NCBI GenBank assembly: GCA_023267755.1
Contig: JAHFMR010000005.1
Span: 1 to 46,350, forward strand
Length of the DNA: 46,350 nucleotides
Reading direction: 5' to 3'
Source: a bacterium
GTDB lineage: Bacteria > Patescibacteriota > Minisyncoccia > Phycocordibacterales > Phycocordibacteraceae
Part shown: piece after piece, positions 12,832-32,233 of the stretch
Layout of the letters: each line of letters opens with the position of its first letter
Position numbering within the stretch: the first letter of the stretch is position 1
The notes under the pieces: model-generated
Database searches by the model: none
Told to the model about the DNA's origin: nothing
What the model saw: the letters and a program-made list of their open reading frames with translations, nothing else
Translations under genes and position numbers: made by a program

Positions 12832-13920
12832 TTATTTTAGAGTAATCGTCTCTTCTGGTGGCGGGAGCGCTACGCGCTCGGCCGTGAAGGGTAGCTGTTC
12901 TATAAGACGGCCGTCGGTCGTCTCAATGTTAACGCGCCACTGCCCTGCATCGGTGATAAGCACTTTTGAATAGCCACGGTAGCCGCCATCACGTCCGCCC
13001 ACAATAGAGTACGCCACTGCCGCCCGGGTCATCCACACCTTCTGTACTGCGTCATACCACTGCCAGCGATGTACGATAGTCGCTTTTACTGCTGTGGGCG
13101 CGAAGACGGAACTGTAAGCAAAAAGCGATTCATTCTGCCCGATGTGTAGCGTCGGTGGGAAGCCGAGATACCGCACCTGCCAAGGCTGGCCTGTCTCGCT
13201 CTTGGCGTAGTAGGCGCCCGGGATATGCCACACTTCGTGGTAAACGCCTGCCGCCGTACTTGAGAGCGGGAGCGGAGGGAGGATGTTAGTGAAATAGAAT
13301 ATGTTCACTACAGCAAGCACGAGAGCCGCTCCCACGCGGATGCGCCACACCTCGGCGAGGAACCGCTCTCTGGCGACCATCCGCAAAAAACCGGTAAACA
13401 ACGCGAAGACACCGATGGCGACTAGCCCGCTCGCCAGGAATGTCGGCGTGCCGATAGAGCCCGTATACATAGGGAGCATAAAGATGGCGCAGGAATAGAG
13501 TGCAAAGAAAAAGAGGATACTCGTGAAGACGAGGCGGGTGTGATACTGGTGAAAATATTCACTTCCGAGGAATACGAGGAACAGGAAAAGGAGAAACGGC
13601 CACGAGGCGCCGAGCACCGCCGAACGTCCGTAGAAGATGACGAACGCGCTCCAGAAGCCGCCGAGTGCAAACTGGGTGATGAGCGGGAGGATAATCCGGA
13701 CACGCGGGAGCGGCGTGCCGCGCCGAGCCGCGCGCGACTCGATCCAGTGCAGGAGCGGTATCGCGAGGAAGCAGACAGCCGCATAGGCGGCGAGGAGCAC
13801 CTGCGTCTGGAGGAGATCAACGCGGACGAAGAGGAGATTGTCAGCGATGAATCCGGCGACCATCGCGAACGCCGAGAGATGCTTCTCGTGCGTGTGCATC
13901 CATGTAAAGAGCCGGTGCAT
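12832..13920 (-). CDS. multi-TM membrane protein with C-terminal DUF2914-like domain
   Basis: The ORF-track N-terminus (to 13983) overlaps tRNA-Phe, so I trimmed it to the ATG at 13920 (alternative 13899). C-terminal IVHRWQWYD...VGGRDGGYRGYSK...GQWRVNIETTDG resembles DUF2914 from memory. Confidence 0.65.
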   Translation of the reverse strand: MHRLFTWMHTHEKHLSAFAMVAGFIADNLLFVRVDLLQTQVLLAAYAAVCFLAIPLLHWIESRAARRGTPLPRVRIILPLITQFALGGFWSAFVIFYGRSAVLGASWPFLLFLFLVFLGSEYFHQYHTRLVFTSILFFFALYSCAIFMLPMYTGSIGTPTFLASGLVAIGVFALFTGFLRMVARERFLAEVWRIRVGAALVLAVVNIFYFTNILPPLPLSSTAAGVYHEVWHIPGAYYAKSETGQPWQVRYLGFPPTLHIGQNESLFAYSSVFAPTAVKATIVHRWQWYDAVQKVWMTRAAVAYSIVGGRDGGYRGYSKVLITDAGQWRVNIETTDGRLIEQLPFTAERVALPPPEETITLK

Positions 13921-13925
13921 ACGAG

Positions 13926-13998
13926 TGCTTGGACCCGGGCTCGAACCGGGGACCCCTTCCTCTTCAGGGAAGTGCTCTACCAACTGAGCTATCCAAGC
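13926..13998 (-). tRNA. tRNA-Phe(GAA)
   Basis: GCTTGGA-TA-GCTC-AGTTGGTA-GAGC, anticodon loop CTGAAGA, T-arm CCCGG-TTCGAGC-CCGGG. No encoded CCA. Confidence 0.95.
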
Positions 13999-14286
13999 TT
14001 ATTGCCCTGTCTTAATCGAGTTTAACAGCTTTCCTAATTGAACGGAAGTCGGCAGACCAAAGGCGCCCTCCGGCGCCGAGATGCCCGAAGCCTGTGAAAA
14101 CTTAGTAACAAACGGCTGGAGATATTGTTGATAGAGATAAAGTGGGAGCGCGAGCACAATTGCCCAGATAATTATCCTCCCGACAAAACCAAGCCACTGA
14201 TCGCGCCGTATCGCGCGGAGCATATCGTGATTGTCCTTGGCGAGCGCATGCGTCTCCAAGAGCAATTGCTTCATCTCTGGGTCCAT
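13999..14286 (-). CDS. small hypothetical membrane protein (95 aa)
   Basis: Single central hydrophobic helix (FVGRIIIWAIVLALPLYLY). It fills the whole gap between tRNA-Arg and tRNA-Phe. No recognisable family. Confidence 0.5.
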   Translation of the reverse strand: MDPEMKQLLLETHALAKDNHDMLRAIRRDQWLGFVGRIIIWAIVLALPLYLYQQYLQPFVTKFSQASGISAPEGAFGLPTSVQLGKLLNSIKTGQ

Positions 14287-14311
14287 ATGGCTTCTAGTAT
14301 AGCAGGCTTTG

Positions 14312-14383
14312 TGCCCCCGCCAGGAGTCGAACCTGAATCAGCTCGTTAGGAGTGAGCCGTTCTATCCATTGAACTACGGGGGC
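14312..14383 (-). tRNA. tRNA-Arg(CCU)
   Basis: GCCCCCG acceptor, anticodon loop CTCCTAA, T-arm TCAGG-TTCGACT-CCTGG. One A-C mismatch at the base of the anticodon stem. No encoded CCA. Confidence 0.9.
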
Positions 14384-14388
14384 CGAAC

Positions 14389-14628
14389 TTACGCGGCGAT
14401 GCCGAGCGAGGACACGAGCCTCTCCTGATCAAAGCCGATAATCAGTTCGTCGCCCACGAGGATAACCGGGACACCCATCTGGCCAGACTTCTGGATCATC
14501 TCCTGACGCTTCTCGAGATCGTGTGCAACGTCGAATTCGCTGTAGCTGATGCCTTTTTCCTTAAGAAAATCCTTGGTCATCTGGCAGAAGTGGCAGGTCG
14601 GGGTGCTGTAAATGGTGACGTTTTTCAT
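14389..14628 (-). CDS. glutaredoxin-like protein (NrdH/GrxC-like, CHFC active site)
   Basis: MKNVTIYSTPTCHFCQMTKDFLKEKGISYSEFDV...GVPVILVGDELIIGFD. The start at 14628 is preferred because the upstream part of the ORF would contain the promoter box. Confidence 0.85.
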   Translation of the reverse strand: MKNVTIYSTPTCHFCQMTKDFLKEKGISYSEFDVAHDLEKRQEMIQKSGQMGVPVILVGDELIIGFDQERLVSSLGIAA

Positions 14629-14649
14629 ATCTATTGAAGTTATGAGCCG

Positions 14650-14658
14650 AGTATACCA
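14650..14658 (-). promoter_or_regulatory. extended -10 promoter (TGgTATACT on minus strand) for the glutaredoxin-like gene
   Basis: The reverse complement of 14650-14658 reads TGGTATACT, 21 nt upstream of the ATG at 14628. Confidence 0.45.
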
Positions 14659-14864
14659 CGTGGAGTTATCCACACCACTTCGCCCTACAGGCTTCGCGGT
14701 GCGCGGCAGAAATATTGGTGCCCCACCTCTGTCTCCTGTCTGACTTGGTGAGACTCCATAGGAGTTCCTTGGCGAGCGCCAGCGTTATGGGACGGGGCAC
14801 CTCGGTCAGGACTTCCCGCAAGCTCCGGGCACTTGACTCCTTGCAGGGTATTATAGTAGTATCG

Positions 14865-14873
14865 TGTATAAGT
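14865..14873 (+). promoter_or_regulatory. extended -10-like box (TGtATAAGT) upstream of the low-GC islet genes
   Basis: Box lies 32 nt upstream of the ATG at 14906. Confidence 0.4.
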
Positions 14874-14905
14874 GTATTCGTTTATTACAAGCTAACACTT
14901 TACAT

Positions 14906-15607
14906 ATGGCCCTAAAAGATCATGTTACAGATTCTGCAAAACTTCGAGAGGAAGAAATCGAGGTAATTATATCTGATTTAATAAAGTACGACCCTGCGAA
15001 TAAGGCAATCGTTCTCCTTCCAAAAGCACAAAGTCTTCCCGTTGAGAAGAAAATACTACTCTATCTTGTCGCTCTGCGTGGTTGGCATTTCGTGGTGAAA
15101 GAAGATCCTCCAGCAACAGATGCCCTTCCCAGGGAGATAGAGCGCGCCACGGGTGTCCGTGGAGGTACCCTTAGGCCAGCTCTACGCGGGCTAGTTCATT
15201 CAAGAATGCTCGATTGCAAAAATGGACGCTATGAAATCCCCGCGCATAATCTTGGTCGAGTCCGTGAGGCCATGACCAGCGGAGGGAGCACGTTGATAGC
15301 CCGTCAGCCCCTCGGGTCAGCCTCAAAAGGAACGAAGGCTAAGCCTCCGAAGGTTAGTAAGAAGGGTTTTGGCGCCAAACCTTCTTTAAAAGAATCTTTC
15401 GACGAACTGGTAGCTAAAAATTGGTTCCAAGGAGGTAAAACTACTACCCAATTAAAAGATAAGCTGGAAGAGTCCGCAGTGATTGTTCCGATGTCTCGAC
15501 TCCCTGTTTACTTGCTCACAGCAGTGCGCGGCAAGCCTCAAAAACTCAAGCGTGAAAAGAAGGATGTTGGGGGTAAGGATATTTGGGTTTATTCGCCCGT
15601 CAAATAA
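14906..15607 (+). CDS. hypothetical protein with winged-helix-like modules and a Lys-rich linker (islet gene 1)
   Basis: 233 aa from the ATG at 14906. The C-terminal about 65 aa (FDELVAKNWFQGGKTTTQLKDKLEE...IWVYSP) resemble the N-terminus of the next protein. Visibly AT-richer than the core. Confidence 0.7.
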   Translation: MALKDHVTDSAKLREEEIEVIISDLIKYDPANKAIVLLPKAQSLPVEKKILLYLVALRGWHFVVKEDPPATDALPREIERATGVRGGTLRPALRGLVHSRMLDCKNGRYEIPAHNLGRVREAMTSGGSTLIARQPLGSASKGTKAKPPKVSKKGFGAKPSLKESFDELVAKNWFQGGKTTTQLKDKLEESAVIVPMSRLPVYLLTAVRGKPQKLKREKKDVGGKDIWVYSPVK

Positions 15608-15608
15608 C

Positions 15609-16289
15609 ATGTCGGGTCAGCTCAAATCTGCTCCGGAACTATTACGAGGTCTTTGGGAGGAACGGTTCTTTGAGCATTCCCGGACCCTGCCTGAGATTAC
15701 AGAAAGGTTGGCAGCCAGCGGTTATCACTTAACCGCCTCTACACTAGGCGTTGCTTTGATTCGTTCTGTGAGAACTGGCAGGTACCTTCTTCGTACCGGC
15801 AGGTTAGGAAAGTGGGTATACACGCAGAAACATCCGTTTTCTGCGCCTTCCGCAGAAACGAGCGAGATGATTGTTCAATATGAGTTCCATCCGCGCATAA
15901 AAGAAGTTTCACTCACGCAATTCAAAAATAAGGATTTCAAAAGTGCGATATTGAACGCTTTTATTGAAGTGGTGACTCAGGTGAAAGTGAAAACCGGACA
16001 TCCCAAAGATAAAAATGGAAAGGACTTGGACGGCGACGATCTGATGAACAGGATCTTCGGCTGCGATGGGATTCAAGTACCAACAGTGAAGTTTAATACC
16101 CTCGCTGACGGCTTGGATCGCGCAGAACAGCGAGGACTCATGTATTTATACAAAGGTGTAGTTGGAGTACGCGACAAGAAGGCTCATTTGAATTTTATTC
16201 AAAATGATCCTTTGAAGACAATTGAGTACTTGAGTTTGGCAAGTCTCCTACTGAGGCTCCTAGACGAGAATCCGGCAACCGAAGCCTAA
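15609..16289 (+). CDS. TIGR02391 (Hypoth_Ymh)-like domain protein with N-terminal wHTH-like module (islet gene 2)
   Basis: The ATG at 15609 lies 1 nt after the previous stop. The C-terminal half FHPRIKEV...FKSAILNAFIEV...AEQRGLMYLYKGVVGVRDKKAHL...EYLSLASLLLRLLDE matches my memory of the TIGR02391 pattern. Confidence 0.72.
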   Translation: MSGQLKSAPELLRGLWEERFFEHSRTLPEITERLAASGYHLTASTLGVALIRSVRTGRYLLRTGRLGKWVYTQKHPFSAPSAETSEMIVQYEFHPRIKEVSLTQFKNKDFKSAILNAFIEVVTQVKVKTGHPKDKNGKDLDGDDLMNRIFGCDGIQVPTVKFNTLADGLDRAEQRGLMYLYKGVVGVRDKKAHLNFIQNDPLKTIEYLSLASLLLRLLDENPATEA

Positions 16290-16319
16290 AGCATCTCAGT
16301 CACCTGGCTTAGCACTAGA

Positions 16320-16393
16320 TGGTGCGGGATAGGAGAATCGAACTCCTGCCTACTGCTTGGGAAGCAGTCGTCCTACCACTAAACTAATCCCGC
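16320..16393 (-). tRNA. tRNA-Gly(CCC), CCA encoded
   Basis: GCGGGAT-TA-GTTT-AGTGGTA-GGAC, anticodon loop TTCCCAA, T-arm AGGAG-TTCGATT-CTCCT, 3' ACCA. Confidence 0.95.
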
Positions 16394-16742
16394 AAAATAA
16401 CCTTTCAGTCTTCTTTTCAAATACCCTCTCCCAAATCCCGTCTTCAATTGAAGTTCTCTTTCTCGCGCATCCTTTTTGTTCAGACAGGCCTCATAGTAGA
16501 CCAAATTTATGGTATCAAACTTCTTGGTTGTGTCTACGTTTTTTGACTTATGCTTTAAGACCCGTTCTCGAAGATTGTTCGTAAAGCCTATATACAAGTC
16601 TGTTTCTAGACCTTTCTTTTTACACAATAAGACGTAGGTGTAATACATATGTTGTTCTACTCCGCCAAAAGCTCGTAGAGCATTTAGGCGGACCCGCCCC
16701 AATGGCGCTGCGCCTTTGGGCGGGCACTAAACTAATCCCGCA
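16377..16742. repeat. 18-nt perfect direct repeat (tRNA-Gly 5' end) flanking the GIY-YIG gene
   Basis: cactaaactaatcccgca occurs at 16377-16394 and 16725-16742. The distal copy is an orphan tRNA 5' fragment followed by a GC-rich hairpin (CCCGCCC...GGGCGGG). Confidence 0.9.
16379..16648 (-). CDS. small GIY-YIG nuclease family protein (UPF0213/YhbQ-like)
   Basis: MYYTYVLLC...LYIGFTNNLRERVLKH...ERELQLK. The last five codons and the TAG stop (F-A-G-L-V-stop) are encoded by the first 15 nt of tRNA-Gly. Confidence 0.85.
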   Translation of the reverse strand: MYYTYVLLCKKKGLETDLYIGFTNNLRERVLKHKSKNVDTTKKFDTINLVYYEACLNKKDARERELQLKTGFGRGYLKRRLKGYFAGLV

Positions 16743-16773
16743 TATTTCATACACAGGGCGGTCCTGTGTATTT

Positions 16774-17112
16774 TTAAAACCAACTGAGGAGCTTCTGCCA
16801 CCAGGACTGCTCTGGAGTCGCTGTGGCGACCACTGGCGGTACCACTACGATAACCTCTTCTCCCGGGCGCGCAACCCCAAAGGACGATCGGATAGCCGTC
16901 TCCTTGCCGCGCGGCGTATCGAGCGCAGCTAGGTTCGCCACGAGGGTCGCCTTACGCTTCTCGAGCTCGTTATACTGCCACTTGGCCTCGCTCGCTTGCG
17001 AGACAGCGATGTGTGCCTTCTCAAAGAGCCCCCAAATGCTTGTGGCGAGCCAGAAGGAAATAAGAAGGAGCACCCCGATCAGGAGCCCTCGCTGTGCTTG
17101 TTTGGCGCGCAT
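16774..17112 (-). CDS. septum formation initiator family protein (FtsB/DivIC-like)
   Basis: 112 aa: N-terminal TM, a coiled-coil segment, then the conserved-looking AIRSSFGVARPGEEVIVV tail. Confidence 0.7.
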   Translation of the reverse strand: MRAKQAQRGLLIGVLLLISFWLATSIWGLFEKAHIAVSQASEAKWQYNELEKRKATLVANLAALDTPRGKETAIRSSFGVARPGEEVIVVVPPVVATATPEQSWWQKLLSWF

Positions 17113-17146
17113 ACCCCCCAGTATACCGTATCTTAAAAGGCTCTGA

Positions 17147-17178
17147 TTGACAGTGGTGATACGAAGTATATACTTCGT
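17147..17178 (+). promoter_or_regulatory. sigma70-like promoter with overlapping palindromic operator for the TA operon
   Basis: TTGACA (17147-17152), 16-nt spacer, TATACT (17169-17174). A perfect 18-nt palindrome ACGAAGTATATACTTCGT (17161-17178) covers the -10. ATG lies 8 nt downstream. Confidence 0.55.
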
Positions 17179-17182
17179 CTAT

Positions 17183-17434
17183 ATGACTACCAGCGTCGTT
17201 TTCAAAATAGATGAGAAGCTGAAACAGCGTGCAATGCGCCGCGCCCACCAAGAAGGCACCACGCTTAGCGCCTTCCTTAAATCGGCCACACACGACTTCG
17301 TCTCGGGAAATCTCCGATTCGGCATCCACTCCGCAAAAGAAGAGCAGGCTGTTGACTACGCTCTCGCGACATATGAGGCAGAAAAGCGCGGTGGCAAGCT
17401 TAAGAAGTTGTCGTCGCTCTCGGCACTTGCTTAG
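17183..17434 (+). CDS. RelB/DinJ-like antitoxin
   Basis: 83 aa. The N-terminal VVFKIDEKLKQRAMRRAHQEGTTLSAFLKSA pattern is typical of DinJ/RelB-type antitoxins. It sits directly upstream of the toxin gene. Confidence 0.7.
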   Translation: MTTSVVFKIDEKLKQRAMRRAHQEGTTLSAFLKSATHDFVSGNLRFGIHSAKEEQAVDYALATYEAEKRGGKLKKLSSLSALA

Positions 17435-17439
17435 ACGGT

Positions 17440-17700
17440 ATGGAGATTCTGACTACGTCTGGATTTAGACGGAAGTTTAAGAAGCTCGGAAAAGAAATTA
17501 AAACAGCCGCTATTGAAAGAGAGCTGCTGTTTCGAGATAACCCATTCGATCCAAAACTCAAAACGCACAAATTGCACGGTAAGTACCGGCGTTACTGGGC
17601 GTTTTCCGTCACGAATACGTACCGTATTATGTTCGACTTCATTACCGAACATTCGGTCGCCTTTATTGATATCGATACGCACGATCTCTATCGAGATTAG
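17440..17700 (+). CDS. RelE/ParE-superfamily toxin (RelE/StbE/YafQ-like)
   Basis: 86 aa. FRRKFKKL...KTHKLHGKYRRYWAFSVTNTYRIMFDF...VAFIDIDTHDLY. Confidence 0.8.
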   Translation: MEILTTSGFRRKFKKLGKEIKTAAIERELLFRDNPFDPKLKTHKLHGKYRRYWAFSVTNTYRIMFDFITEHSVAFIDIDTHDLYRD

Positions 17701-17712
17701 TAACAATAACCG

Positions 17713-19509
17713 CTATTCAGCCGAGGATTGAACCATTTTCATAAAGACTTCTTCGGGAATATTCACCTTCCCTCTTCCCCGCTCGAGGAGCTTCTTCTTG
17801 CCGCGCTTCTGTTTGTCGAGGAGCTTGTTCTTGCGCGAGACGTCGCCGCCGTAGAGATAGCCAGTGACATCCTTGCGCATCGCCGAGAGCGTTCGTGAGG
17901 CGATGATACGCCCGCCCGCCCGCGCTTGTATCTTGGTCGTGAAGAGTTGTTTGGGGAGGATGGTGTGGAGCTTCTCCACCATCTTCTCCGCCTCCTCCTG
18001 CACACGCCGTGAGGCTACCACGCGTGCGAAGGCGGCCACCGGCTCATCTGCCACGAGCACATCGAGACGCACTACGTCTGCCGGACGTTCGGGGAGGAGC
18101 TCGTATGAGAGCGAGGCGTAACCGCTTGAGATATTCTTCAGCTTATCGAAGAAGCCGCGCATCAGCTCGCGTAGCGGCATCTCGACCGTCATCTTGATGC
18201 GGCCGTCCTGATACGTCTCGGTCTCGGTCGTGTTCGCCTCGTGATCGTAGAGGAGCTGCACGAGTGAGCTCACTGCCTCCGGCGGCGTGATGATGATGGC
18301 GGACGCCCAAGGCTCTTCTATCTGGATAATGTCACCGTGTTCGGGAAACTTGGCTGGCGTATAAATAATCTCGCGGGTGCCGTTGGTGCGGGTGATGACG
18401 TAGGAGATGGTTGGTATCGTCACAATAAGAGTGAGGCCGAACTCGCGGCGCAAGCGCTCGGTAATAATTTCGAGATGGAGGAGGCCGAGGAAGCCGCAAC
18501 GGAATCCTCGCCCGAGCACACCCGACGACTCTTCTTCAAACGAGAGCGAGGAGTCTGAGAGACGGAGCCTCTCGAGCGATTTCCGCAGGAGCGGGAGATC
18601 GTCTTGGCTCTCCGGATACACTGACGCCCAGACGACTGGATGTGGCCGTGCATACCCCTCAAGCGAGGGAAGTGCCCCTCTCGCCTCGCCGATAGTGTCG
18701 CCCACGGCAACAACGCCCGCTTCCTTAATGCCCGTAACGATATAGCCTATTTCTCCCGCCGAGAGAGAGTCAGCGGGCGTCTCGCCAGGAGTGAAGATGC
18801 CCGTCTCAAGCGCAATAAAATCTTTCCCCGCCGCGTGGAAGGTGAGCGACTGCCCTTTCTTAAACGTGCCGTCGAAGACACGTAAGTAGACGGCAATGCC
18901 GCGGTGCGTGGAGTAGGAGAAGTCGAAGATAAGCCCACGCGGTTCGCCACTCGCCGAGAGCGAGGCGCGCGGCGGGGGGACATTTTTAACAATCGCCTCA
19001 AGCAGCTCGTCGATGCCCGCACCCGTCTTCCCAGACACGGCGAGCACCGTGTCGGGCGAGACATCGAGCAGCTTCGCGAGCTCGGCCTTCACCTCTGCTG
19101 GGCGCGCGGCGGGCGAATCTATCTTCGATACAATCGGGATAATCGTGCATCCCTGTGCTCTAGCCATCGCGAGCGTGGTGAGCGTCTGTGCCTGCACGCC
19201 CTGCGTCGAGTCGACTAGAAGCAAGACTCCCTCGACCGCATGGAGCGCGCGCGACACCTCGTAGGAGAAGTCGATATGACCGGGCGTGTCGATAAGATTC
19301 AAAACGTAGTCGCCATAGCGCATACGCACTGGCTGCATCTTAATCGTGATGCCGCGCTCGCGCTCCAGGTCCATACGATCGAGCACCTGATCGCGCATCA
19401 TACGCTCCGGAATAGTGCCCGTGCGCTCGAGCAAGCGGTCAGCCAAGGTCGACTTGCCGTGGTCGACGTGCGCGATAATTGAGAAGTTGCGGATGAGTTT
19501 CGGGTTCAC
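17713..19509 (-). CDS. lepA: elongation factor 4
   Basis: IRNFSIIAHVDHGKSTLADRLL, DTPGHIDF and a LepA C-terminal domain. GTG start overlapping the murJ stop (GTGA). Confidence 0.97.
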   Translation of the reverse strand: MNPKLIRNFSIIAHVDHGKSTLADRLLERTGTIPERMMRDQVLDRMDLERERGITIKMQPVRMRYGDYVLNLIDTPGHIDFSYEVSRALHAVEGVLLLVDSTQGVQAQTLTTLAMARAQGCTIIPIVSKIDSPAARPAEVKAELAKLLDVSPDTVLAVSGKTGAGIDELLEAIVKNVPPPRASLSASGEPRGLIFDFSYSTHRGIAVYLRVFDGTFKKGQSLTFHAAGKDFIALETGIFTPGETPADSLSAGEIGYIVTGIKEAGVVAVGDTIGEARGALPSLEGYARPHPVVWASVYPESQDDLPLLRKSLERLRLSDSSLSFEEESSGVLGRGFRCGFLGLLHLEIITERLRREFGLTLIVTIPTISYVITRTNGTREIIYTPAKFPEHGDIIQIEEPWASAIIITPPEAVSSLVQLLYDHEANTTETETYQDGRIKMTVEMPLRELMRGFFDKLKNISSGYASLSYELLPERPADVVRLDVLVADEPVAAFARVVASRRVQEEAEKMVEKLHTILPKQLFTTKIQARAGGRIIASRTLSAMRKDVTGYLYGGDVSRKNKLLDKQKRGKKKLLERGRGKVNIPEEVFMKMVQSSAE

Positions 19510-21182
19510 GGTTGTATCGGTTCTTCGGCGCTTGGCGCGAGTACTACGGGATTCCCCTTCTGCAAGAGTTTGCCGAGTGCACTCGTCACGATGCGAAATT
19601 CTTCATTCTCCACCACGTAGAGCGCGAGCGCCGCGGCAACAAGACCCGCGACACCCGCGACAAATCCCTGTAGGAAGACCGCCATCAGCGTTGTGAGCGG
19701 CGCAATGCCTCCTTCAAGAGTGAGCACTACGTACGTCGCGATACCTCCCGCGATGGCAGCGAGGGTTCCGTCGAAAAGAGGTCGGATGAGCGTCTTAGCC
19801 AGACCGCGAGAAACACTCCAGAGCGCGAGTAGTGAGAGGAGTGCGAGGAATACTTGCCCGACTGTGGCCGCGAGCGCGACCAGGAGGACTGCTGTCCCTG
19901 ACACGTCGCCGACCTTCAAGACATCGGCGAGCATTGTGGGGAATCCTTGTGTTGGCAGAGAGAGGAACCACGCTGCGACGCCGATAGTGAGCGCTCCTCC
20001 GAGAACCTGATAGATGAACGGCCGCCACGACTGGTGCACGGCGTAGAGCGCCCGCGAGAAGAGGAGCACCAACCCTTGAGCGACGAGACTCACCGCGAGC
20101 GTCGCGAGAAGTGCTGCGGTGAGTCTTGTGGCATTCCAGTCGAATGCGCCTGTGCCAAGGATGACACGCACGAGATGCGCGCGAAGCACCACGATGAGTC
20201 CGAGCGCCACGAGCGACCAGAGAATCACATGTCGCGCACTTGCGGAGAGGATGCCGGTGAATTCTTCGCGGCGCTCGAGCGCAGACGCTTCCGAGAGCGC
20301 TGGGAACGCCGCCACCGCGTAGGAGGCACCGATAAGACCAAGCGGGACCGCTTCCAAGTTGCTTGCAAAGGTGAATACGGAGATAGCCCCTGTCCCCACT
20401 CTTGAGGCGAGCGCAGTGAGCACGAGCATCGTTATTGAACCCATCCCGAGCGCGAGTGAGCGCGGGACCGAATCACGAACCACGCTCGCCATCAGCTTCC
20501 ACGTGGGGGCACAAAGCCGCGGCATCACCCCTGCCTCGAGTACCACCGGGATATTCACTGCCAGGTAGGCAATCGCCCCAATAATAACGCCTACTCCGAT
20601 GCCCGGCAGTCCCCAGAGCGGATAGAAGAAGATGGTGCCAAGGATGATGCCAAGATTGTAGAGCACTGGCGAAATAGCGAAGAGGGTGAAGCGTCGATGC
20701 ACCTGCGTGACGCTCCCGAGGATACCGGAGAGTCCGAGCAGGATGGGTTGTATGAGCAGCATACGCGCAAGCAGTACGAACTCGGCTTGCTGTGGCGAGG
20801 CCGCGAGGTCCGGATACAGGAATCCAAGGAATTGTGGCATAAAGACTGCGAGCACCACGCAGATAGCCCCACCAAGACCGAAGAGGAAGGATGCCGATTC
20901 GGAGAGCAATCGTCGCGTCGCGTCCCTATCCATACCTGTGATGCGCGGGATAATGACATACGCGCTCACGAGTGAAGAGACGAGCGCGAAGACGAGATCG
21001 GGAACGCGGAACGCCGCGTAGTAGAGATCGAGTGTCTGCCCTGCTCCAAAGGAATGCGCGAAGGTGCGGTCCCGTAGGAGCGCGAGCGCCTGCGACGCGA
21101 GCGTGAGTGCAGCAAGCAAGTACGCGGCCTGATGCAGGCCGCGTACCGGTGCCGCGATGCGTTCGAATAGTCGCCGAACCAT
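19506..21182 (-). CDS. murJ: lipid II flippase MurJ/MviN
   Basis: 558 aa with about 14 TM segments. The N-terminal LLRDRTFAHSFGAGQTLDLYYAAFRVPDLVF signature is typical of MurJ. Confidence 0.9.
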   Translation of the reverse strand: MVRRLFERIAAPVRGLHQAAYLLAALTLASQALALLRDRTFAHSFGAGQTLDLYYAAFRVPDLVFALVSSLVSAYVIIPRITGMDRDATRRLLSESASFLFGLGGAICVVLAVFMPQFLGFLYPDLAASPQQAEFVLLARMLLIQPILLGLSGILGSVTQVHRRFTLFAISPVLYNLGIILGTIFFYPLWGLPGIGVGVIIGAIAYLAVNIPVVLEAGVMPRLCAPTWKLMASVVRDSVPRSLALGMGSITMLVLTALASRVGTGAISVFTFASNLEAVPLGLIGASYAVAAFPALSEASALERREEFTGILSASARHVILWSLVALGLIVVLRAHLVRVILGTGAFDWNATRLTAALLATLAVSLVAQGLVLLFSRALYAVHQSWRPFIYQVLGGALTIGVAAWFLSLPTQGFPTMLADVLKVGDVSGTAVLLVALAATVGQVFLALLSLLALWSVSRGLAKTLIRPLFDGTLAAIAGGIATYVVLTLEGGIAPLTTLMAVFLQGFVAGVAGLVAAALALYVVENEEFRIVTSALGKLLQKGNPVVLAPSAEEPIQP

Positions 21183-28383: not shown

Positions 28384-30693
28384 TCAGGACGCGATTGGCA
28401 CCGTAAAGACAAAGGTGCTCCCCTTGCCTAATTCGCTCTTCTCTAACCCTATCGTACCGCCCATGCTCGAGATTATAAGCCGTGAGATATACAGACCCAA
28501 CCCGGTGCTTTGGGTGACATCTCGCGCAAGCATCTGTTCTCCTGCTTGTTGGAATTTCCTGAAAAGGAGCGCCTGATTGTGTTCTGAGATGCCCGCTCCC
28601 GTATCAGTGACTCTCACTTGAATGAAATTCTCTGCTGCTGTAAGCGCAACAGTGATACTCCCCTCCTTGGTAAATTTCGCTGCATTCCCGATCAAATTGA
28701 CAAGAATCTGCTCGACCTTGTCCTTATCAGCATTCACCGCAGGCAACGGCGCAGTCGGTGGCACATAGACGAGCGCCAACCCTTTCTTGCTAATCATCTC
28801 TCTCAGATCCCGATCTACCTTAGCGACTACTTCGGCTATGTCGAATTTTTCCTTTTTAATCTCCACTCGTCCTTGCTCAAGGCGCGACGCTTCGAGGAAA
28901 TCATTAACGATGGAGATGAGTCGCACACTGGAGGTGCCGATATCTGTAAGCATTTCTTTCATATCTTTATCGACTATCTTATCCGCGTACATATCAAGAA
29001 TCATATCGGCATTGCCGCGAATAGCCGTTAGCGGCGTACGGAGTTCGTGAGAGGCTACTGCGAAGAATTCGTCGCGACTCCGCTCCATAACCTTCGCCTC
29101 GGTGATGTCTTCGACCAGGATTACGTACCCGATAGCCACTTCTGCAGACTGAGCCGTGTCATCCTTCGTAAGGATGGGGGTGCAGAAGACGCGAAGATAT
29201 TTCTTCCCATGAGAGATTTCCTTCAATTCAACCATCCTCTTGATTTCCAAACATTCCCGGCAGGAATGCGCCAGCGCATCCAGATTTGAGGTCACTCCCT
29301 TGAAGGAATCGACGATATCTGCTATGGAAGCGGGTTCTTCGGCCAATTCGAGTATGTTCAGAAGCGCCTCGTTCCTAACGAGAACCTTGTCATCGGTATC
29401 CGCGATAATGAACCCGAACGGCAGACTATTGATAGAAGCAAGGAGGCGCGCTTTCTCATTACTAAGCTCACGTGTCCTGATAACGACTATCTCTTCAACT
29501 TTCTTCTTCTCTCCCTCGATGTCTTCGAGAAGGTTGAGAATAGCTTTCTTCGAGCTCTCTACCTCGATAATCTGCTCCGATAACTGTGCTGTTTTTTCTT
29601 GTATCCTCTGTTCAAGCCCTGACCGAGCGTTTCGAAGATTTTCCGCCATTTCGTTAAATGCCTGTCCGAGAGTTCCTATCTCATCTTTCGTGTCAATATC
29701 GATCTTGGTATCTAAATTACCTTGACTGATGACCAGAGCGGCATTGGTTAATCTCCGTATCGGCCTCGAAATTGATCTTGTAATCAGCAACCCGCTTATT
29801 GTTACGAAAATCAAGATACCGAATCCGATTGGCAATGAGTTATACGCTATCGCGTATGCAGGCTTCATAGCTTCGTCATAATCGATACTCGCAATCAAAC
29901 AGACGCTATTTCTTGGTATCCATCTATGCAAGCCGATAACACTCGACCCCGCATAGCTCGTATCATGGAACCCATCGTGCTTTTTTAGACAATCGGTGAT
30001 GCCAGCTGAATAGACGTATTTCTGAAATTCTGTTCCTTCATTCTTTCTAAGTGTCGTAACCGCAAGGTTATATTTGTTGACGAGATACGTCTCTCCAGAG
30101 TCACCGAGACCAGCTCTTTCCGTCATCAAGTCTGAAATTGATTTCAAATTAATCCTCCCCGCAAGAATTGCGAATTCTTTACCGGATGCGTCGACAAACG
30201 GGGTTGCGAGCGTGGAAGATGGTTTGAGCGTAATCGAATCATAATAGAAATTTTCGAGATATGAATCCCCCTCTTTACTCTTATTGAAATAGTCCTCGCC
30301 AGACACGATATTGCCAACATGTGTAGTGTCCGTAGAGAAAAGTATCTTTCCCTGCAGGTCAATGATGAAAAGTTCGGTAAAATTACTCCCCGTCAAATGC
30401 TCCTGTAATATGTGATCGATAGAAATGTCCGACGTACTTTTAGTAGTAGAAAAGAGCTCTTTTGCGCTTGCGATAGACCAATCTTCCCTGGCGAGCCTCT
30501 GCAACTGACCGACGATGGAAGTGATGAAGGTGTTAAGCTGATCCTCTTTGATGACCACAACGCTCTCGAGCTGGGCCTTGACACGGTTCACTATGGCCTC
30601 TTTGGCAAAATGGTAACTAATCGACATATCGATCGCTACCGCGAACATAGCAATCAAAACTGTTATCAGTACTAATTTATGCCCTATCTTCAT
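28384..30693 (-). CDS. sensor histidine kinase: TM-dCache-TM-HAMP-coiled coil-PAS-HisKA-HATPase_c
   Basis: 769 aa. HAMP RPIRRLTNAALVISQGNLD...EIGTLGQAFNEMAENL, H-box FFAVASHELRTPLTAIRG, N box LVNLIGNAAKFT, G boxes DTGAGI and GLGLYISR. Confidence 0.95.
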   Translation of the reverse strand: MKIGHKLVLITVLIAMFAVAIDMSISYHFAKEAIVNRVKAQLESVVVIKEDQLNTFITSIVGQLQRLAREDWSIASAKELFSTTKSTSDISIDHILQEHLTGSNFTELFIIDLQGKILFSTDTTHVGNIVSGEDYFNKSKEGDSYLENFYYDSITLKPSSTLATPFVDASGKEFAILAGRINLKSISDLMTERAGLGDSGETYLVNKYNLAVTTLRKNEGTEFQKYVYSAGITDCLKKHDGFHDTSYAGSSVIGLHRWIPRNSVCLIASIDYDEAMKPAYAIAYNSLPIGFGILIFVTISGLLITRSISRPIRRLTNAALVISQGNLDTKIDIDTKDEIGTLGQAFNEMAENLRNARSGLEQRIQEKTAQLSEQIIEVESSKKAILNLLEDIEGEKKKVEEIVVIRTRELSNEKARLLASINSLPFGFIIADTDDKVLVRNEALLNILELAEEPASIADIVDSFKGVTSNLDALAHSCRECLEIKRMVELKEISHGKKYLRVFCTPILTKDDTAQSAEVAIGYVILVEDITEAKVMERSRDEFFAVASHELRTPLTAIRGNADMILDMYADKIVDKDMKEMLTDIGTSSVRLISIVNDFLEASRLEQGRVEIKKEKFDIAEVVAKVDRDLREMISKKGLALVYVPPTAPLPAVNADKDKVEQILVNLIGNAAKFTKEGSITVALTAAENFIQVRVTDTGAGISEHNQALLFRKFQQAGEQMLARDVTQSTGLGLYISRLIISSMGGTIGLEKSELGKGSTFVFTVPIAS

Positions 30694-31709
30694 TTATAGA
30701 TGGCGTTCAGAAATTCCATCGTGTACGCGCTACTCACATCGCTCTTATTCGTGATAATCTTCTGCTCAGAGAGCGTGTCTTGCACTTGTTCCCATTTTGT
30801 CTGTTCCATCCAACCGATGGAGGTATCTCCGGTATTAATAAGTGGGATAGAAGAGTGGAGCATATAGCTCTCGTGACTCTTGGTGCTCTTTAGTGCGTAA
30901 GCAAGTACGATGTCGACGGTTTCAGATTCGTTCTCAATCGCATATTTCCACCCTTCGATGGTTGCCTCGACGAATTTCTGAACCGTCGCCGGATTCTTTT
31001 GTATCGTATCTTCTCGTACAAACAACACATCAGCGTACATATTTGCGCCATAATTCGCCATCAGGATGGTATTCACCTCTTGTCCCGCCTCGACGACCAG
31101 TTGGGGCTCATTGATAACATACCCCGTTGAGACATCGGTAGTCCCATTTAGCAATTCCGTCGCGTCATATCCGATTGTTACCTCATTTATTTTTTTCTTA
31201 TCGATACCAAGCTTGTTTAACATAGTGGCGTAGAGGATGCCCACGTTGACCTCCGATCCGTCTGCTGCTCGTTCAATGCCAACCGTCTTGCCGATGAAAT
31301 CTTGCGGCTTCGTTATGTTATTCTTTTTGAGCGAGTAAGCGACGACAGGATTTATCTTATAGATAACCGCGACAGCCTTAATTGGTGCTCCTTTTGATCG
31401 AGCGATGATGAGTTCGTCAGCACCGGTGATGCCGAAATCTGCTTTACCATCCACCACGGCACTGATAGTGGGTTGTTCGAATGAGAACGGCTTGATATCT
31501 ACCGCGAGCCCCACTTTTTCATAGAACCCTTTATCCTTGGCGACATAATTCCCGGCAAATTGTGCCTGATGCAACCACTTCAAATTCAGCGTAACCGGGG
31601 TGAGAACAATCGAATTCTTGTCACTTGAGGACAGCCCTCCCCGCATATAGATGCCGCCGAGTGCGATGATACCGAGTGCGACCCCGATTGCTATTCTTTT
31701 TACGTTCAT
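30690..31709 (-). CDS. NMT1/THI5/SsuA-type periplasmic solute-binding protein, membrane/signal anchored
   Basis: 339 aa. LKWLHQAQFAGNYVAKDKGFYEKVGLAVDIKP...ADFGITGADELIIARSKGAPIKAV. ATGA overlaps at both ends. No permease or ATPase gene in the window. Confidence 0.85.
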   Translation of the reverse strand: MNVKRIAIGVALGIIALGGIYMRGGLSSSDKNSIVLTPVTLNLKWLHQAQFAGNYVAKDKGFYEKVGLAVDIKPFSFEQPTISAVVDGKADFGITGADELIIARSKGAPIKAVAVIYKINPVVAYSLKKNNITKPQDFIGKTVGIERAADGSEVNVGILYATMLNKLGIDKKKINEVTIGYDATELLNGTTDVSTGYVINEPQLVVEAGQEVNTILMANYGANMYADVLFVREDTIQKNPATVQKFVEATIEGWKYAIENESETVDIVLAYALKSTKSHESYMLHSSIPLINTGDTSIGWMEQTKWEQVQDTLSEQKIITNKSDVSSAYTMEFLNAIYK

Positions 31710-32233
31710 GGCGTATAACGTTGGTTGGTAAGCCTCCGGTTCTCTTCTTTTAATTCGATCATCTTCAGCTCCCGATCGATCATGAGCTGATTGAGTTTTT
31801 TAAGTTCCTTAATATTCTCATCTTTCTGTATCTCCGCCTCTTTTTCAGAAGTCACGTCTTTTGAAATGAAGAGGATGTATTTGAAATTCCCGTTCTTATC
31901 CTTAGCCGGAGCCAGACTACTATGGCACCAGTGCCCGGTTGATGTCCCCGGAACATGTTCCATATCAAATTCGCTCGATTCCCCTTCAAGAGCCTTCTTC
32001 ATACTTTCTTTTACCAGATCGTGATATTTCTCCTCAATGCAATCCATATATTTCCAGTGTTTGATTTCTTCATCGCTCTTATCAAGCAAGAAGTGTTCTT
32101 CGCGCGCACCCTTGTTCACTGAAACTAAATTGCCCTGCGCATCAAATAGCTTGATGCACAGCGGCGCGGTGTCAAGAAGCGTCTTGTAGAGATATTCGCT
32201 TCCTTCTTCTGCTGGTTCTTGGTTTTGGTTCAT
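31706..32233 (-). CDS. cytoplasmic PAS-domain protein with C-terminal coiled coil
   Basis: 175 aa. YKTLLDTAPLCIKLFDAQGNLVSVN...FISKDVTSEKEAE, then a heptad-like KELKKLNQLMIDRELKMIELKEE. Confidence 0.75.
   Translation of the reverse strand: MNQNQEPAEEGSEYLYKTLLDTAPLCIKLFDAQGNLVSVNKGAREEHFLLDKSDEEIKHWKYMDCIEEKYHDLVKESMKKALEGESSEFDMEHVPGTSTGHWCHSSLAPAKDKNGNFKYILFISKDVTSEKEAEIQKDENIKELKKLNQLMIDRELKMIELKEENRRLTNQRYTP

Follow-up and report, generated by a model that had tools for sequence, protein, structure and literature searches.

A two-gene cassette at a tRNA-Gly end in a Patescibacteria genome, encoding a double winged-helix protein and a predicted HEPN RNase

The cassette and its insertion site

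The genomes of Patescibacteria (the candidate phyla radiation, CPR) are tiny; hardly any member has been cultured, and few defence or addiction systems have been recognised in the group. Here we describe two adjacent genes, gene 1 and gene 2, in the 46,350-nt stretch of contig JAHFMR010000005.1 (assembly GCA_023267755.1), hereafter the window, whose gene content and synteny are those of a groundwater Patescibacteria genome. The nearest public relatives of its LepA protein, as well as those of the two-gene cassette itself, come from Paceibacterota/Patescibacteria metagenome-assembled genomes, and the sequencing runs in which the DNA occurs are groundwater metagenomes. The two genes point in the same direction and are practically contiguous: as an earlier first-pass annotation of this DNA had pointed out, a single nucleotide separates the gene 1 stop codon, ending at 15607, from the gene 2 ATG at 15609. 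The features that define the cassette and its borders are as follows.

14311-14383, minus strand: tRNA-Arg(cct)
14389-14673, minus strand: glutaredoxin gene grx, lying between tRNA-Arg and gene 1, ancestral
14716-14721, unstranded: left copy of the direct repeat, TGGTGC, the complement of the tRNA 3′ GCACCA
14722-16319, plus strand: inserted cassette, 1598 bp, GC 0.476, without counterpart in 80 syntenic relatives
14722-14733, plus strand: left terminal motif CCCACCTC[A/T]GTC, present only in the window and, at the equivalent position, in the related locus L122
14906-15607, plus strand: gene 1, ATG start, 233 aa
15609-16289, plus strand: gene 2, 226 aa
16296-16319, plus strand: right terminal motif TCAGTCACCTGGCTTAGCACTAGA, flush with the tRNA-Gly 3′ end
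16320-16393, minus strand: tRNA-Gly(ccc), target of the insertion, ending 3′ in GCACCA (16320-16325; TGGTGC on the plus strand), which forms the right copy of the direct repeat

When metagenomes were scanned with the LepA encoded nearby, 80 loci came up, with a LepA 71-87% identical to that of the window. These relatives share the gene order p789-p558-lepA-p112-tRNAGly-grx-tRNAArg-p95-tRNAPhe-memb383 (the last a membrane protein), and none of the 80 carries a relative of gene 1 or gene 2. In two of them (L042 and L073) the CCA end of tRNA-Gly is followed by merely 7 bp and then by the conserved grx promoter box TGTGGATAAC...TATACT, whereas 1.64 kb separate these landmarks in the window. The spacer to the left of 14716-14721 is laid out like the ancestral tRNA-to-grx spacer of another relative (L052). 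Since the TGGTGC tRNA terminus recurs at 14716-14721, right beside this ancestral-type spacer, the inserted unit can be delimited as 14722-16319. Moreover, contigs assembled from the source sample and from a second sample contain a form of about 3x depth, evidently a co-occurring sibling population, which joins grx to tRNA-Gly and tRNA-Gly to p112 and has neither the cassette nor the GIY-YIG gene that adjoins it in the window. Thus, the horizontal acquisition proposed by the first-pass annotation is borne out by the syntenic relatives, by the 7-bp site and by the sibling contig. The same annotation had placed the pair between two tRNA genes; this holds for the right side, bounded by tRNA-Gly, but on the left the boundary is formed by the grx gene and its promoter, not by tRNA-Arg.

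The ends of the cassette recur at other tRNA 3′ ends in other metagenomes. Its nearest relative, L122, comes from an unrelated run and encodes proteins 73% identical to those of the window. It aligns with the window from the promoter through the tRNA end, with a weaker alignment at the left end. The left end of L122 reads CCCACCTCAGTC and is immediately preceded by TGTGC, the tRNA end of that genome itself, while the right end, ...TTAGCACTAGAA, is followed by TGTGCGGGATGGGAG, a tRNA-Gly-like 3′ fragment, with the complete tRNA end about 140 nt further on. At another locus (L014) the same right-end motif, TCAGTCACCTGACTTAGCA, lies flush against the 3′ end of a tRNA-Gln gene, and at L011 the end of gene 2 lies 57 nt from the facing 3′ end of a tRNA-Ser. 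As a separate observation, positions 2356-2500 of L122 consist of a 19-nt tRNA 3′ fragment, about 125 nt of unrelated sequence and then an intact tRNA 3′ end, as if this tRNA had received a second insertion, nested or tandem.

The cassette is a discrete, precise and recent insertion of foreign 1.6-kb DNA at the CCA end of tRNA-Gly(CCC). Three traits characterise tRNA-targeting elements, and all are found here: they insert at the 3′ end of a tRNA, a direct repeat flanks them, and related genomes have the site empty. Its resemblance to tRNA-targeting integrative islands extends to the atypical composition, the absence of a counterpart in relatives and the serine or tyrosine recombinases present at sister loci (see below). 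It differs from such islands in being merely 1.6 kb long, in lacking an integrase and in having a repeat of only 6 bp. Indeed, no integrase is encoded within 14722-16319, and around the cassette we found neither long att-type repeats nor terminal inverted repeats, just the 6-bp TGGTGC. The stretch of about 110 bp between the left end and the promoter (14722-14832) is GC-rich, unlike the genes, and is partly kept in L122 (e.g. GGGTTCCTTGGC); it could be a recombination-site arm or a remnant.

Base composition points the same way, as the first-pass annotation had proposed from two samples whose counts proved exact (24/60 G+C at 15001-15060 and 36/60 at 20101-20160). The two-gene stretch has a GC content of 0.464 against a window mean of 0.544, which places it at the 5.6th percentile among windows of equal size, and its tetranucleotide distance falls within the top 3% of windows. 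GC is 0.47 in gene 1 and 0.46 in gene 2, and at third codon positions (GC3) the values are 0.42 and 0.48, compared with 0.59-0.74 for grx, p112, lepA and other neighbours. Another and larger block of low GC occupies 28400-32200 (GC 0.43-0.49, GC3 about 0.53-0.55); it spans the minus-strand open reading frames 28384-30693, 30690-31709 and 31706-32233 and may also have been acquired. Because of this second block at 28.4-32.2 kb, the composition of the cassette is atypical but not unique.

Domain architecture of the two proteins

AlphaFold2 gave confident models for the two proteins (mean pLDDT 84.9 and 84.4). Combined with profile searches, they divide the proteins into the following regions.

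14906-15280, plus strand: gene 1 residues 1-125, N-terminal predicted winged helix-turn-helix (wHTH) domain, wHTH-A, pLDDT about 90-96
15281-15385, plus strand: gene 1 residues 126-160, linker, predicted disordered, strongly basic, net charge +8
15386-15604, plus strand: gene 1 residues 161-233, C-terminal module X, predicted basic winged helix, net charge +6
15609-15842, plus strand: gene 2 residues 1-78, N-terminal module X, predicted winged helix, net charge +6
15858-16286, plus strand: gene 2 residues 84-226, HEPN (Ymh, PF09509) domain, predicted all-helical
16170-16187, plus strand: codons of the HEPN R-x4-H motif, R188-D-K-K-A-H193, the predicted catalytic motif

The start of gene 1 is fixed by the N-terminus MALKD, which is invariant in 41 homologs. 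Gene 1 belongs to no family in Pfam, NCBIfam, PADLOC or PHROG, and a profile search of PDB sequences with it gave no match. We collected 47 word-indexed relatives, and an exhaustive hidden Markov model (HMM) search retrieved 344 cluster representatives (clusters at 50% identity) with E<=1e-10, of which 92 have E<=1e-30. In the model, wHTH-A (residues 5-124) consists of a long helix and a β-hairpin followed by a MarR/ArsR-like winged helix. Foldseek comparison with the PDB produced local winged-helix matches to MarR, SmtB and IdeR with high probabilities, all at E >= 0.007. Some members of the gene 1 family show sporadic sub-threshold Pfam matches to helix-turn-helix families of the ArsR, MarR, IclR and GntR kinds; models matched weakly include HTH_20, MarR_2 and HTH_5. 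wHTH-A can also exist on its own, as a stand-alone gene of 127 aa in L002, L010 and L019. Most of the linker (residues 132-156) has pLDDT below 50, and confidence returns to about 90 in module X (model residues 161-231), which is predicted to adopt the order helix-helix-helix-β-β.

The N-terminal part of gene 2 is modelled similarly, with helices at residues 8-17, 27-36 and 43-55 and strands at 60-65 and 68-73, followed by a short low-confidence linker. Foldseek found local matches of this module to BlaI, PadR, Fur and rpc34 (probability 0.99-1.0, all at E >=0.007). The remainder of gene 2 (residues 92-218) matches the Pfam family Hypoth_Ymh, PF09509, practically end to end (profile positions 2-119 of 119; E 8.8e-19; 68 bits against a gathering cut-off of 25). 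The first-pass annotation had assigned this region to TIGR02391; the Pfam family holds, but the score against the NCBIfam TIGR02391 model itself, 35.4, stays just under the cut-off of 39.45. Homologs 57-69% identical to gene 2 nevertheless carry the name TIGR02391 family protein at NCBI and JGI. The further statement that such proteins have no assigned mechanism has to be revised, since Ymh/PF09509 has been placed in the HEPN RNase superfamily with its conserved Rx4-6H motif (Anantharaman et al. 2013, PMC3710099). Among 64 homologs 53-73% identical to gene 2, the motif residues R188, D189, K191, A192 and H193 are invariant, as are N195 and the stretch E173-Q174-R175-G176. The model contains six helices across residues 84-220 (pLDDT about 90). 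Pfam and the motif, then, both place gene 2 in the Ymh HEPN family, as a predicted metal-independent RNase. Foldseek searches of PDB and BFVD with the whole gene 2 model retrieved generic wHTH domains, all at E >= 0.007, and no HEPN structure, so that for both proteins fold comparison points to a winged helix and nothing further; a profile search of PDB sequences gave a chance mannanase match (E 0.4) and no meaningful relative. Neither protein matched PHROGs. At the level of single domains, gene 2 matched the PADLOC models Aga_HEPN (2.9e-9) and PD-Lambda-3_B (2e-4).

A module common to the C-terminus of gene 1 and the N-terminus of gene 2 had been noticed in the first-pass annotation from the sequence, and profile comparison confirms it. 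We aligned the C-terminal 79 residues of the gene 1 family with the N-terminal 80 residues of the gene 2 family using HHalign, and residues 156-232 of gene 1 matched residues 3-74 of gene 2 over 71 columns with a probability of 98.1% and E 9.2e-14; four control domain pairs gave E values of 0.025-0.37. In every locus examined, the HMM of each copy matches the other copy. The relationship is visible to profile methods alone: BLASTP of gene 1 against gene 2 gives nothing significant (E 0.24). The two copies of module X are homologous by these profile comparisons, both are predicted to be winged helices, and both are strongly basic, with mean net charges across their families of +5 and +7.

Promoter repeats, sister cassettes and neighbourhood

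Upstream of gene 1 lie two further features.

14833-14862, plus strand: putative sigma-70-like promoter, TTGACT, 18-nt spacer, TAGTAT, a consensus match only
14864-14887, plus strand: operator-like triple direct repeat GTGTATAA GTGTATTC GTTTATTA, GTGTAT with an 8-bp period, directly after the -10 hexamer

The putative promoter ends 44 nt upstream of gene 1, and in homologous loci both TTGACT and the -10 region can be aligned. When seven loci of the gene 1 type are compared in this way, the columns of the repeat do not vary at all, although the proteins encoded there are just 57-73% identical. The exact pattern GTGTATNNGTGTAT precedes gene 1 homologs in L001, L011-L014, L122 and L123, and with one mismatch in L016, so that every gene 1 homolog found has the repeat upstream; it was found nowhere else across 123 loci. 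In the window it has one exact match against 0.11 expected. Related operons have repeats of their own: those headed by a 120-aa protein carry TATTC...GAATA sets around their promoters, and those of a 276-aa type carry ATACA-N4-5-TGTAT around the promoter. Repeats that are specific to the type of operon are the pattern expected of operators autoregulated by the product of the first gene. The GTGTAT repeats are therefore operator-like and a candidate for autoregulation. We also considered whether module X of gene 2 might bind a TGTAT half-site common to the promoters of the gene 1 type and the 276-aa type. This idea was rejected as unsupported, because X-HEPN operons headed by the 120-aa protein carry different repeats (GAATA/TATTC). 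An Rfam search over 13800-17800 returned three tRNAs and nothing else; therefore the conserved leader and the termini of the cassette match no known RNA.

The cassette belongs to a large set of relatives. Clustered at 90% identity, full-length proteins with the X-HEPN architecture fall into at least 253 groups, nearly all of them from Patescibacteria-type metagenomes. Homologs of gene 1 and gene 2 lie on one contig in at least 10 cases, abutting or overlapping, as expected if the pair is the two-component cassette that the first-pass annotation had taken it for. In homologous loci the spacing ranges from overlaps of 8-20 nt to gaps of 1-6 nt. Housekeeping operons, a setting that would have counted against such a cassette, do not harbour the homologs. 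In every examined context with upstream sequence the X-HEPN gene is preceded by a co-oriented gene, the type of which varies:

Gene 1 type: the window, L001, L011, L014, L016 and L122
Split version: a 127-aa wHTH-A protein plus a 136-140-aa protein, with an additional 81-aa stand-alone X in L010
A protein of 276-279 aa in which another winged-helix-like module occurs twice: L003, L005 and L008
Arrays of 2-3 small X proteins (121/108/87 aa): L015, L020, L022, L025 and L028

The loci with arrays contain two to four copies of module X each, and in other loci the module occurs as a stand-alone gene of 81-87 aa or within two or three upstream genes. The module X profile retrieves more than 500 proteins, mainly of about 120 aa. 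Such proteins also head cassettes without HEPN, which end instead in a protein of about 260 aa (L036, L038 and L040); four of five aligned members of the latter have the motif H-x-R-x4-D-x6-G-x-S-x-x-N, reminiscent of HKD/PLD (phospholipase D) nucleases. Terminal proteins of about 250-280 aa are encoded at 6903-7643 of L020, 4313-5149 of L024, 6144-6932 of L038 and 5798-6586 of L040, with a C-terminal H-D-R-[FY]-x-I-x-x-x6-G-x-[SG]-[IL]-K-[DN] that resembles the HKD/PLD signature. Those of L020 and L024 have an N-terminal winged-helix-like region akin to the repeats of the 276-aa and 140-aa partners. No Pfam or PHROG model matched the terminal proteins significantly, and the neighbour proteins of 121, 108, 140, 246 and 276 aa in sister cassettes have no significant Pfam family.

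Of some 25 sister loci, six distinct ones have a serine recombinase beside the cassette (L001, L008/9, L020, L027, L038/39 and L040/41) and one has a tyrosine integrase (L010/L018); tRNA genes adjoin most of them. The gene 1-gene 2 pair of L011 adjoins a cytochrome oxidase operon, and the nearest 5 kb contain no recombinase. In L008 (2105-2187) and L040 (3385-3460) a tRNA gene, for Gln and Thr respectively, shares sequence with the 3′ end of the serine recombinase gene; in L038 (3353-3465) a tRNA-Ser gene ends about 25 nt from the recombinase 3′ end. Islands that have integrated in tRNA genes and carry the recombinase at their outermost edge would be expected to look like this. Furthermore, the sequence for the C-terminal 41-85 residues of the adjacent serine recombinase is repeated on the other side of the cassette, in direct orientation in L001 (6856-6978 and 7600-7854, with CGACGTTCGAACCTTT repeated at each copy) and inverted in L040 (6680-6838). 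Such copies suggest that the 3′ end of the recombinase gene has been a site of serial integration, or of recombination.

Several other insertions share the neighbourhood of the cassette in the window. The GIY-YIG gene that the first-pass annotation had noted next door is indeed there:

16379-16648 (or to 16702), minus strand: GIY-YIG gene, PF01541, 5e-13

Its end falls inside the 5′ end of tRNA-Gly, and an 18-bp direct repeat, CACTAAACTAATCCCGCA (16377-16394 and 16725-16742), duplicates that 5′ end around a GIY-YIG unit of about 348 bp. Most of the 80 relatives are without the unit; it occupies the same place in L043, L098 and L105, and a co-occurring contig that lacks it joins 16393 to 16837. 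It looks like an independent selfish insertion at the 5′ end of the tRNA. Small GIY-YIG genes (82-90 aa) also adjoin tRNA-Gln beside sister cassettes (4705-4977 of L002, 6310-6561 of L005 and 4765-5013 of L020), which suggests a recurrent association of GIY-YIG genes with tRNAs in Patescibacteria. Between lepA and p112, a 600-bp insertion (17113-17712) carries a RelB/DinJ-like gene (17147-17434) and a RelE/YafQ-like gene (17440-17700), both with family matches under the curated cut-offs for antitoxin and toxin. This pair has no counterpart in any of the 80 relatives, and its site measures 18 bp in L042; it was inserted 0.9 kb from the cassette, in the same hotspot. Other insertions of 2-5 kb occur at differing intergenic points of the lepA-p112-tRNA-grx-p95 block in L082, L083, L089, L099 and L079/L114. 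Because relatives carry other insertions at different points there, this tRNA-rich block is a hotspot for variable DNA.

Interpretation

Comparison with known systems places the pair close to several of them. Gene 2 belongs to no catalogued defence system and gene 1 to no described family, and in the literature that we searched we found neither a fusion of Ymh with a winged helix, nor a partner with a matching module, nor the operator, nor an integrase-less cassette at a tRNA end. The C-terminal domain of gene 2 matches the Ymh family from end to end and keeps R-x4-H. Ymh domains have been described as solo proteins or fused to paraMORC, AbiJ-NTD1 or AbiTii, in restriction-modification (R-M) and abortive infection (Abi) contexts (PMC3710099). 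In the cassette, by contrast, Ymh is fused at its N-terminus to a basic winged helix that Pfam does not contain, the partner gene encodes a double-wHTH protein that has the same module, and no R-M genes are nearby. With the toxin-antitoxin (TA) pairs HEPN/MNT and RnlA/RnlB the cassette shares a translationally coupled two-gene operon, a predicted HEPN RNase in the downstream position and a location on mobile DNA. Unlike in those systems, gene 1 is neither a nucleotidyltransferase (MNT) nor RnlB-like; the partner is a double wHTH of DNA-binding type that shares a domain with the predicted toxin, and both proteins are of about 230 aa. The similarity to Aga_HEPN (Argonaute-associated HEPN) and PD-Lambda-3_B is local and confined to the HEPN domain. 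PD-Lambda-3 includes a PD-(D/E)XK partner (PMC10952713), whereas the cassette has no such partner and no prokaryotic Argonaute (pAgo) gene.

A further parallel is with effector-associated domains (EADs) of NTP-dependent conflict systems. There, the same small domain on adjacent products has been taken for an adaptor that couples them homotypically (Kaur et al. 2020, PMC7159879). Module X likewise occurs both on a non-enzymatic partner and fused to the adjacent effector. On the other hand, a vWA-MoxR, GAP1-type GTPase or STAND core is absent from the 1.6-kb insertion, module X is a strongly basic winged helix that may bind nucleic acid rather than itself, and it can be repeated in several small upstream genes.

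The comparative evidence solidly documents the pair as a predicted HEPN-based two-gene conflict module, most likely a self-regulated one of toxin/antitoxin-like or abortive-infection type; for the role itself, defence or addiction, the pair is a candidate only. One feature familiar from type II TA operons is present, two adjacent co-oriented genes with tight spacing. Such operons also have a DNA-binding partner with an operator at its own promoter; here the partner is a predicted wHTH protein, and the conserved GTGTAT repeats after the -10 hexamer are a candidate operator. The explanation that we favour, with a probability of about 0.55, is an integrase-less mobile, autoregulated operon in which gene 2 is the HEPN RNase effector and gene 1 the double-wHTH regulator that restrains it. 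In this scheme, the cassette would act as one autoregulated operon and one mobile unit. Gene 2, the predicted RNase with its catalytic R-x4-H, would be carried on the basic winged helix X. The wHTH-A domain of gene 1 would bind the three GTGTAT repeats, which overlap the presumed transcription start, and so repress the operon, while the basic linker and the C-terminal X would keep the RNase in check. This restraint could work in two ways. The X of gene 1 may pair with the X of gene 2, in the manner of an effector-associated adaptor domain, or it may occupy the same nucleic-acid ligand, alongside gene 2 or in its place; the second option is equally workable because both copies are strongly basic. 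If gene 1 were lost or titrated, the RNase would be freed and growth would stop, which would stabilise the mobile element (addiction), abort an infection, or both. In this scheme RNase activity, toxicity and its neutralisation, the identity of the domain that reads the repeats and any anti-phage role are predictions.

A number of observations weigh against this explanation or parts of it. Proteins of 233 and 226 aa exceed the size typical of type II TA partners. Since neither sequence nor fold searches retrieved a solved HEPN structure, the HEPN fold rests on Pfam and the motif. The promoter and the operator are likewise pattern matches, and metatranscriptome contigs from the same sample, covering only tRNA pieces and part of the GIY-YIG gene, are uninformative on expression of the cassette. 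PADLOC gave no match at the level of a system, gene 1 has no PADLOC match at all, and no pAgo or PD-(D/E)XK neighbour is present. With gene 2 as the tblastn query, none of 50,697 phage and 72,556 plasmid records matched, and a scan of IMG/VR viral contigs found no relative. As for the restraint mechanism, the net charge of +5 to +7 on the X copies argues for binding of nucleic acid rather than for simple homotypic pairing. In addition, some X-HEPN genes are headed by partners that have no module X (the 276-aa and 140-aa families), so that X-X contact cannot be the universal mechanism of control. Given the basic X copies and the partners devoid of X, co-binding of a common nucleic acid, or competition for it, is at least as likely as direct X-X pairing.

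A different possibility is that the pair constitutes a sensor-effector anti-phage system of the abortive infection type rather than an addiction module. The basic X winged helices would then recognise invader nucleic acid or its modification state, and gene 1 with gene 2, or arrays of X, would co-assemble on that ligand, leading to HEPN dimerisation and RNA cleavage. This reading agrees with the data; it overlaps with the autoregulated operon favoured above and differs from it mainly in the trigger. The known R-M and Abi settings of Ymh HEPN domains (PMC3710099) would fit such a role, as would the PADLOC matches to Aga_HEPN and PD-Lambda-3_B and the strongly basic character of module X in all family members. 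The presence of two to four X copies per locus (L015, L020, L022, L025 and L028) and the coupling of X proteins to alternative terminal genes (L036, L038 and L040) add a modularity typical of defence systems. However, known defence genes do not flank the cassette in the window, we found no phage-borne relatives or counter-defence context, and the conserved repeats at the operon's own promoter point to self-regulation. On balance, we regard a dedicated anti-phage system as unlikely.

Alternatively, the pair might serve the mobile element itself: the wHTH domains would be recombination directionality or att-site architectural factors as well as transcriptional regulators, the HEPN domain would process regulatory RNA without being toxic, and the island would be mobilised in trans. 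Conserved termini flush with tRNA 3′ ends in an element that has no recombinase of its own speak for this, as do relatives that immediately adjoin a serine recombinase gene with its 3′ end overlapping a tRNA gene or present in duplicate around the cassette. The two DNA-binding-type domains of gene 1, joined by a basic linker, would suit the role as well. Yet the strictly conserved HEPN catalytic residues fit an effector, and the L011 pair lies beside a cytochrome oxidase operon, with the 5 kb around it free of recombinases. Moreover, it is the promoter and not the ends of the element that has the conserved repeats, which makes a recombination role less likely, and we consider this explanation quite improbable. 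Finally, an ordinary transcription factor and RNA-processing enzyme of the lineage, with low GC being incidental, might be read into two conserved proteins evidently under purifying selection, one of them from the winged-helix class of common regulators, but the synteny data all but rule out such a housekeeping role: the pair has no counterpart in the 80 syntenic relatives or in the co-occurring sibling population. Against it also stand a GC3 that is 0.2-0.3 under that of the flanking genes and genomic contexts that vary, often with recombinases alongside.

Returning to the favoured operon of regulator and effector, the sister loci allow a broader and more tentative proposal, which we see as possible and fairly doubtful: a large undescribed family of modular cassettes, mainly in Patescibacteria, in which effectors and regulators are matched through basic winged-helix modules (X and another, B), and which, having no integrases, would settle precisely at tRNA CCA ends as units with conserved termini, presumably through mobilisation in trans by large serine recombinases of the kind found beside sister cassettes. 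The effectors would be either the Ymh HEPN RNase or the protein of about 260 aa with the HKD-like motif. Modules X and B would provide an assembly code, templated by nucleic acid or homotypic, and thus a winged-helix counterpart of Death-like/EAD adaptors.

Whatever the breadth of the family, the locus defines a compact unit of four parts, namely a putative promoter, an operator-like repeat, a regulator and a predicted HEPN RNase. With its conserved ends at tRNA termini, the clean 1.6-kb insertion can also serve as a model for the spread of small cargo cassettes that lack an integrase of their own. If the shared winged helix indeed couples regulator and effector, the logic of matched adaptors would extend from NTPase-centred systems to a minimal two-gene system. 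To our knowledge, the control of Ymh-type HEPN nucleases has not been studied, and such coupling, if true, would give a handle on it.

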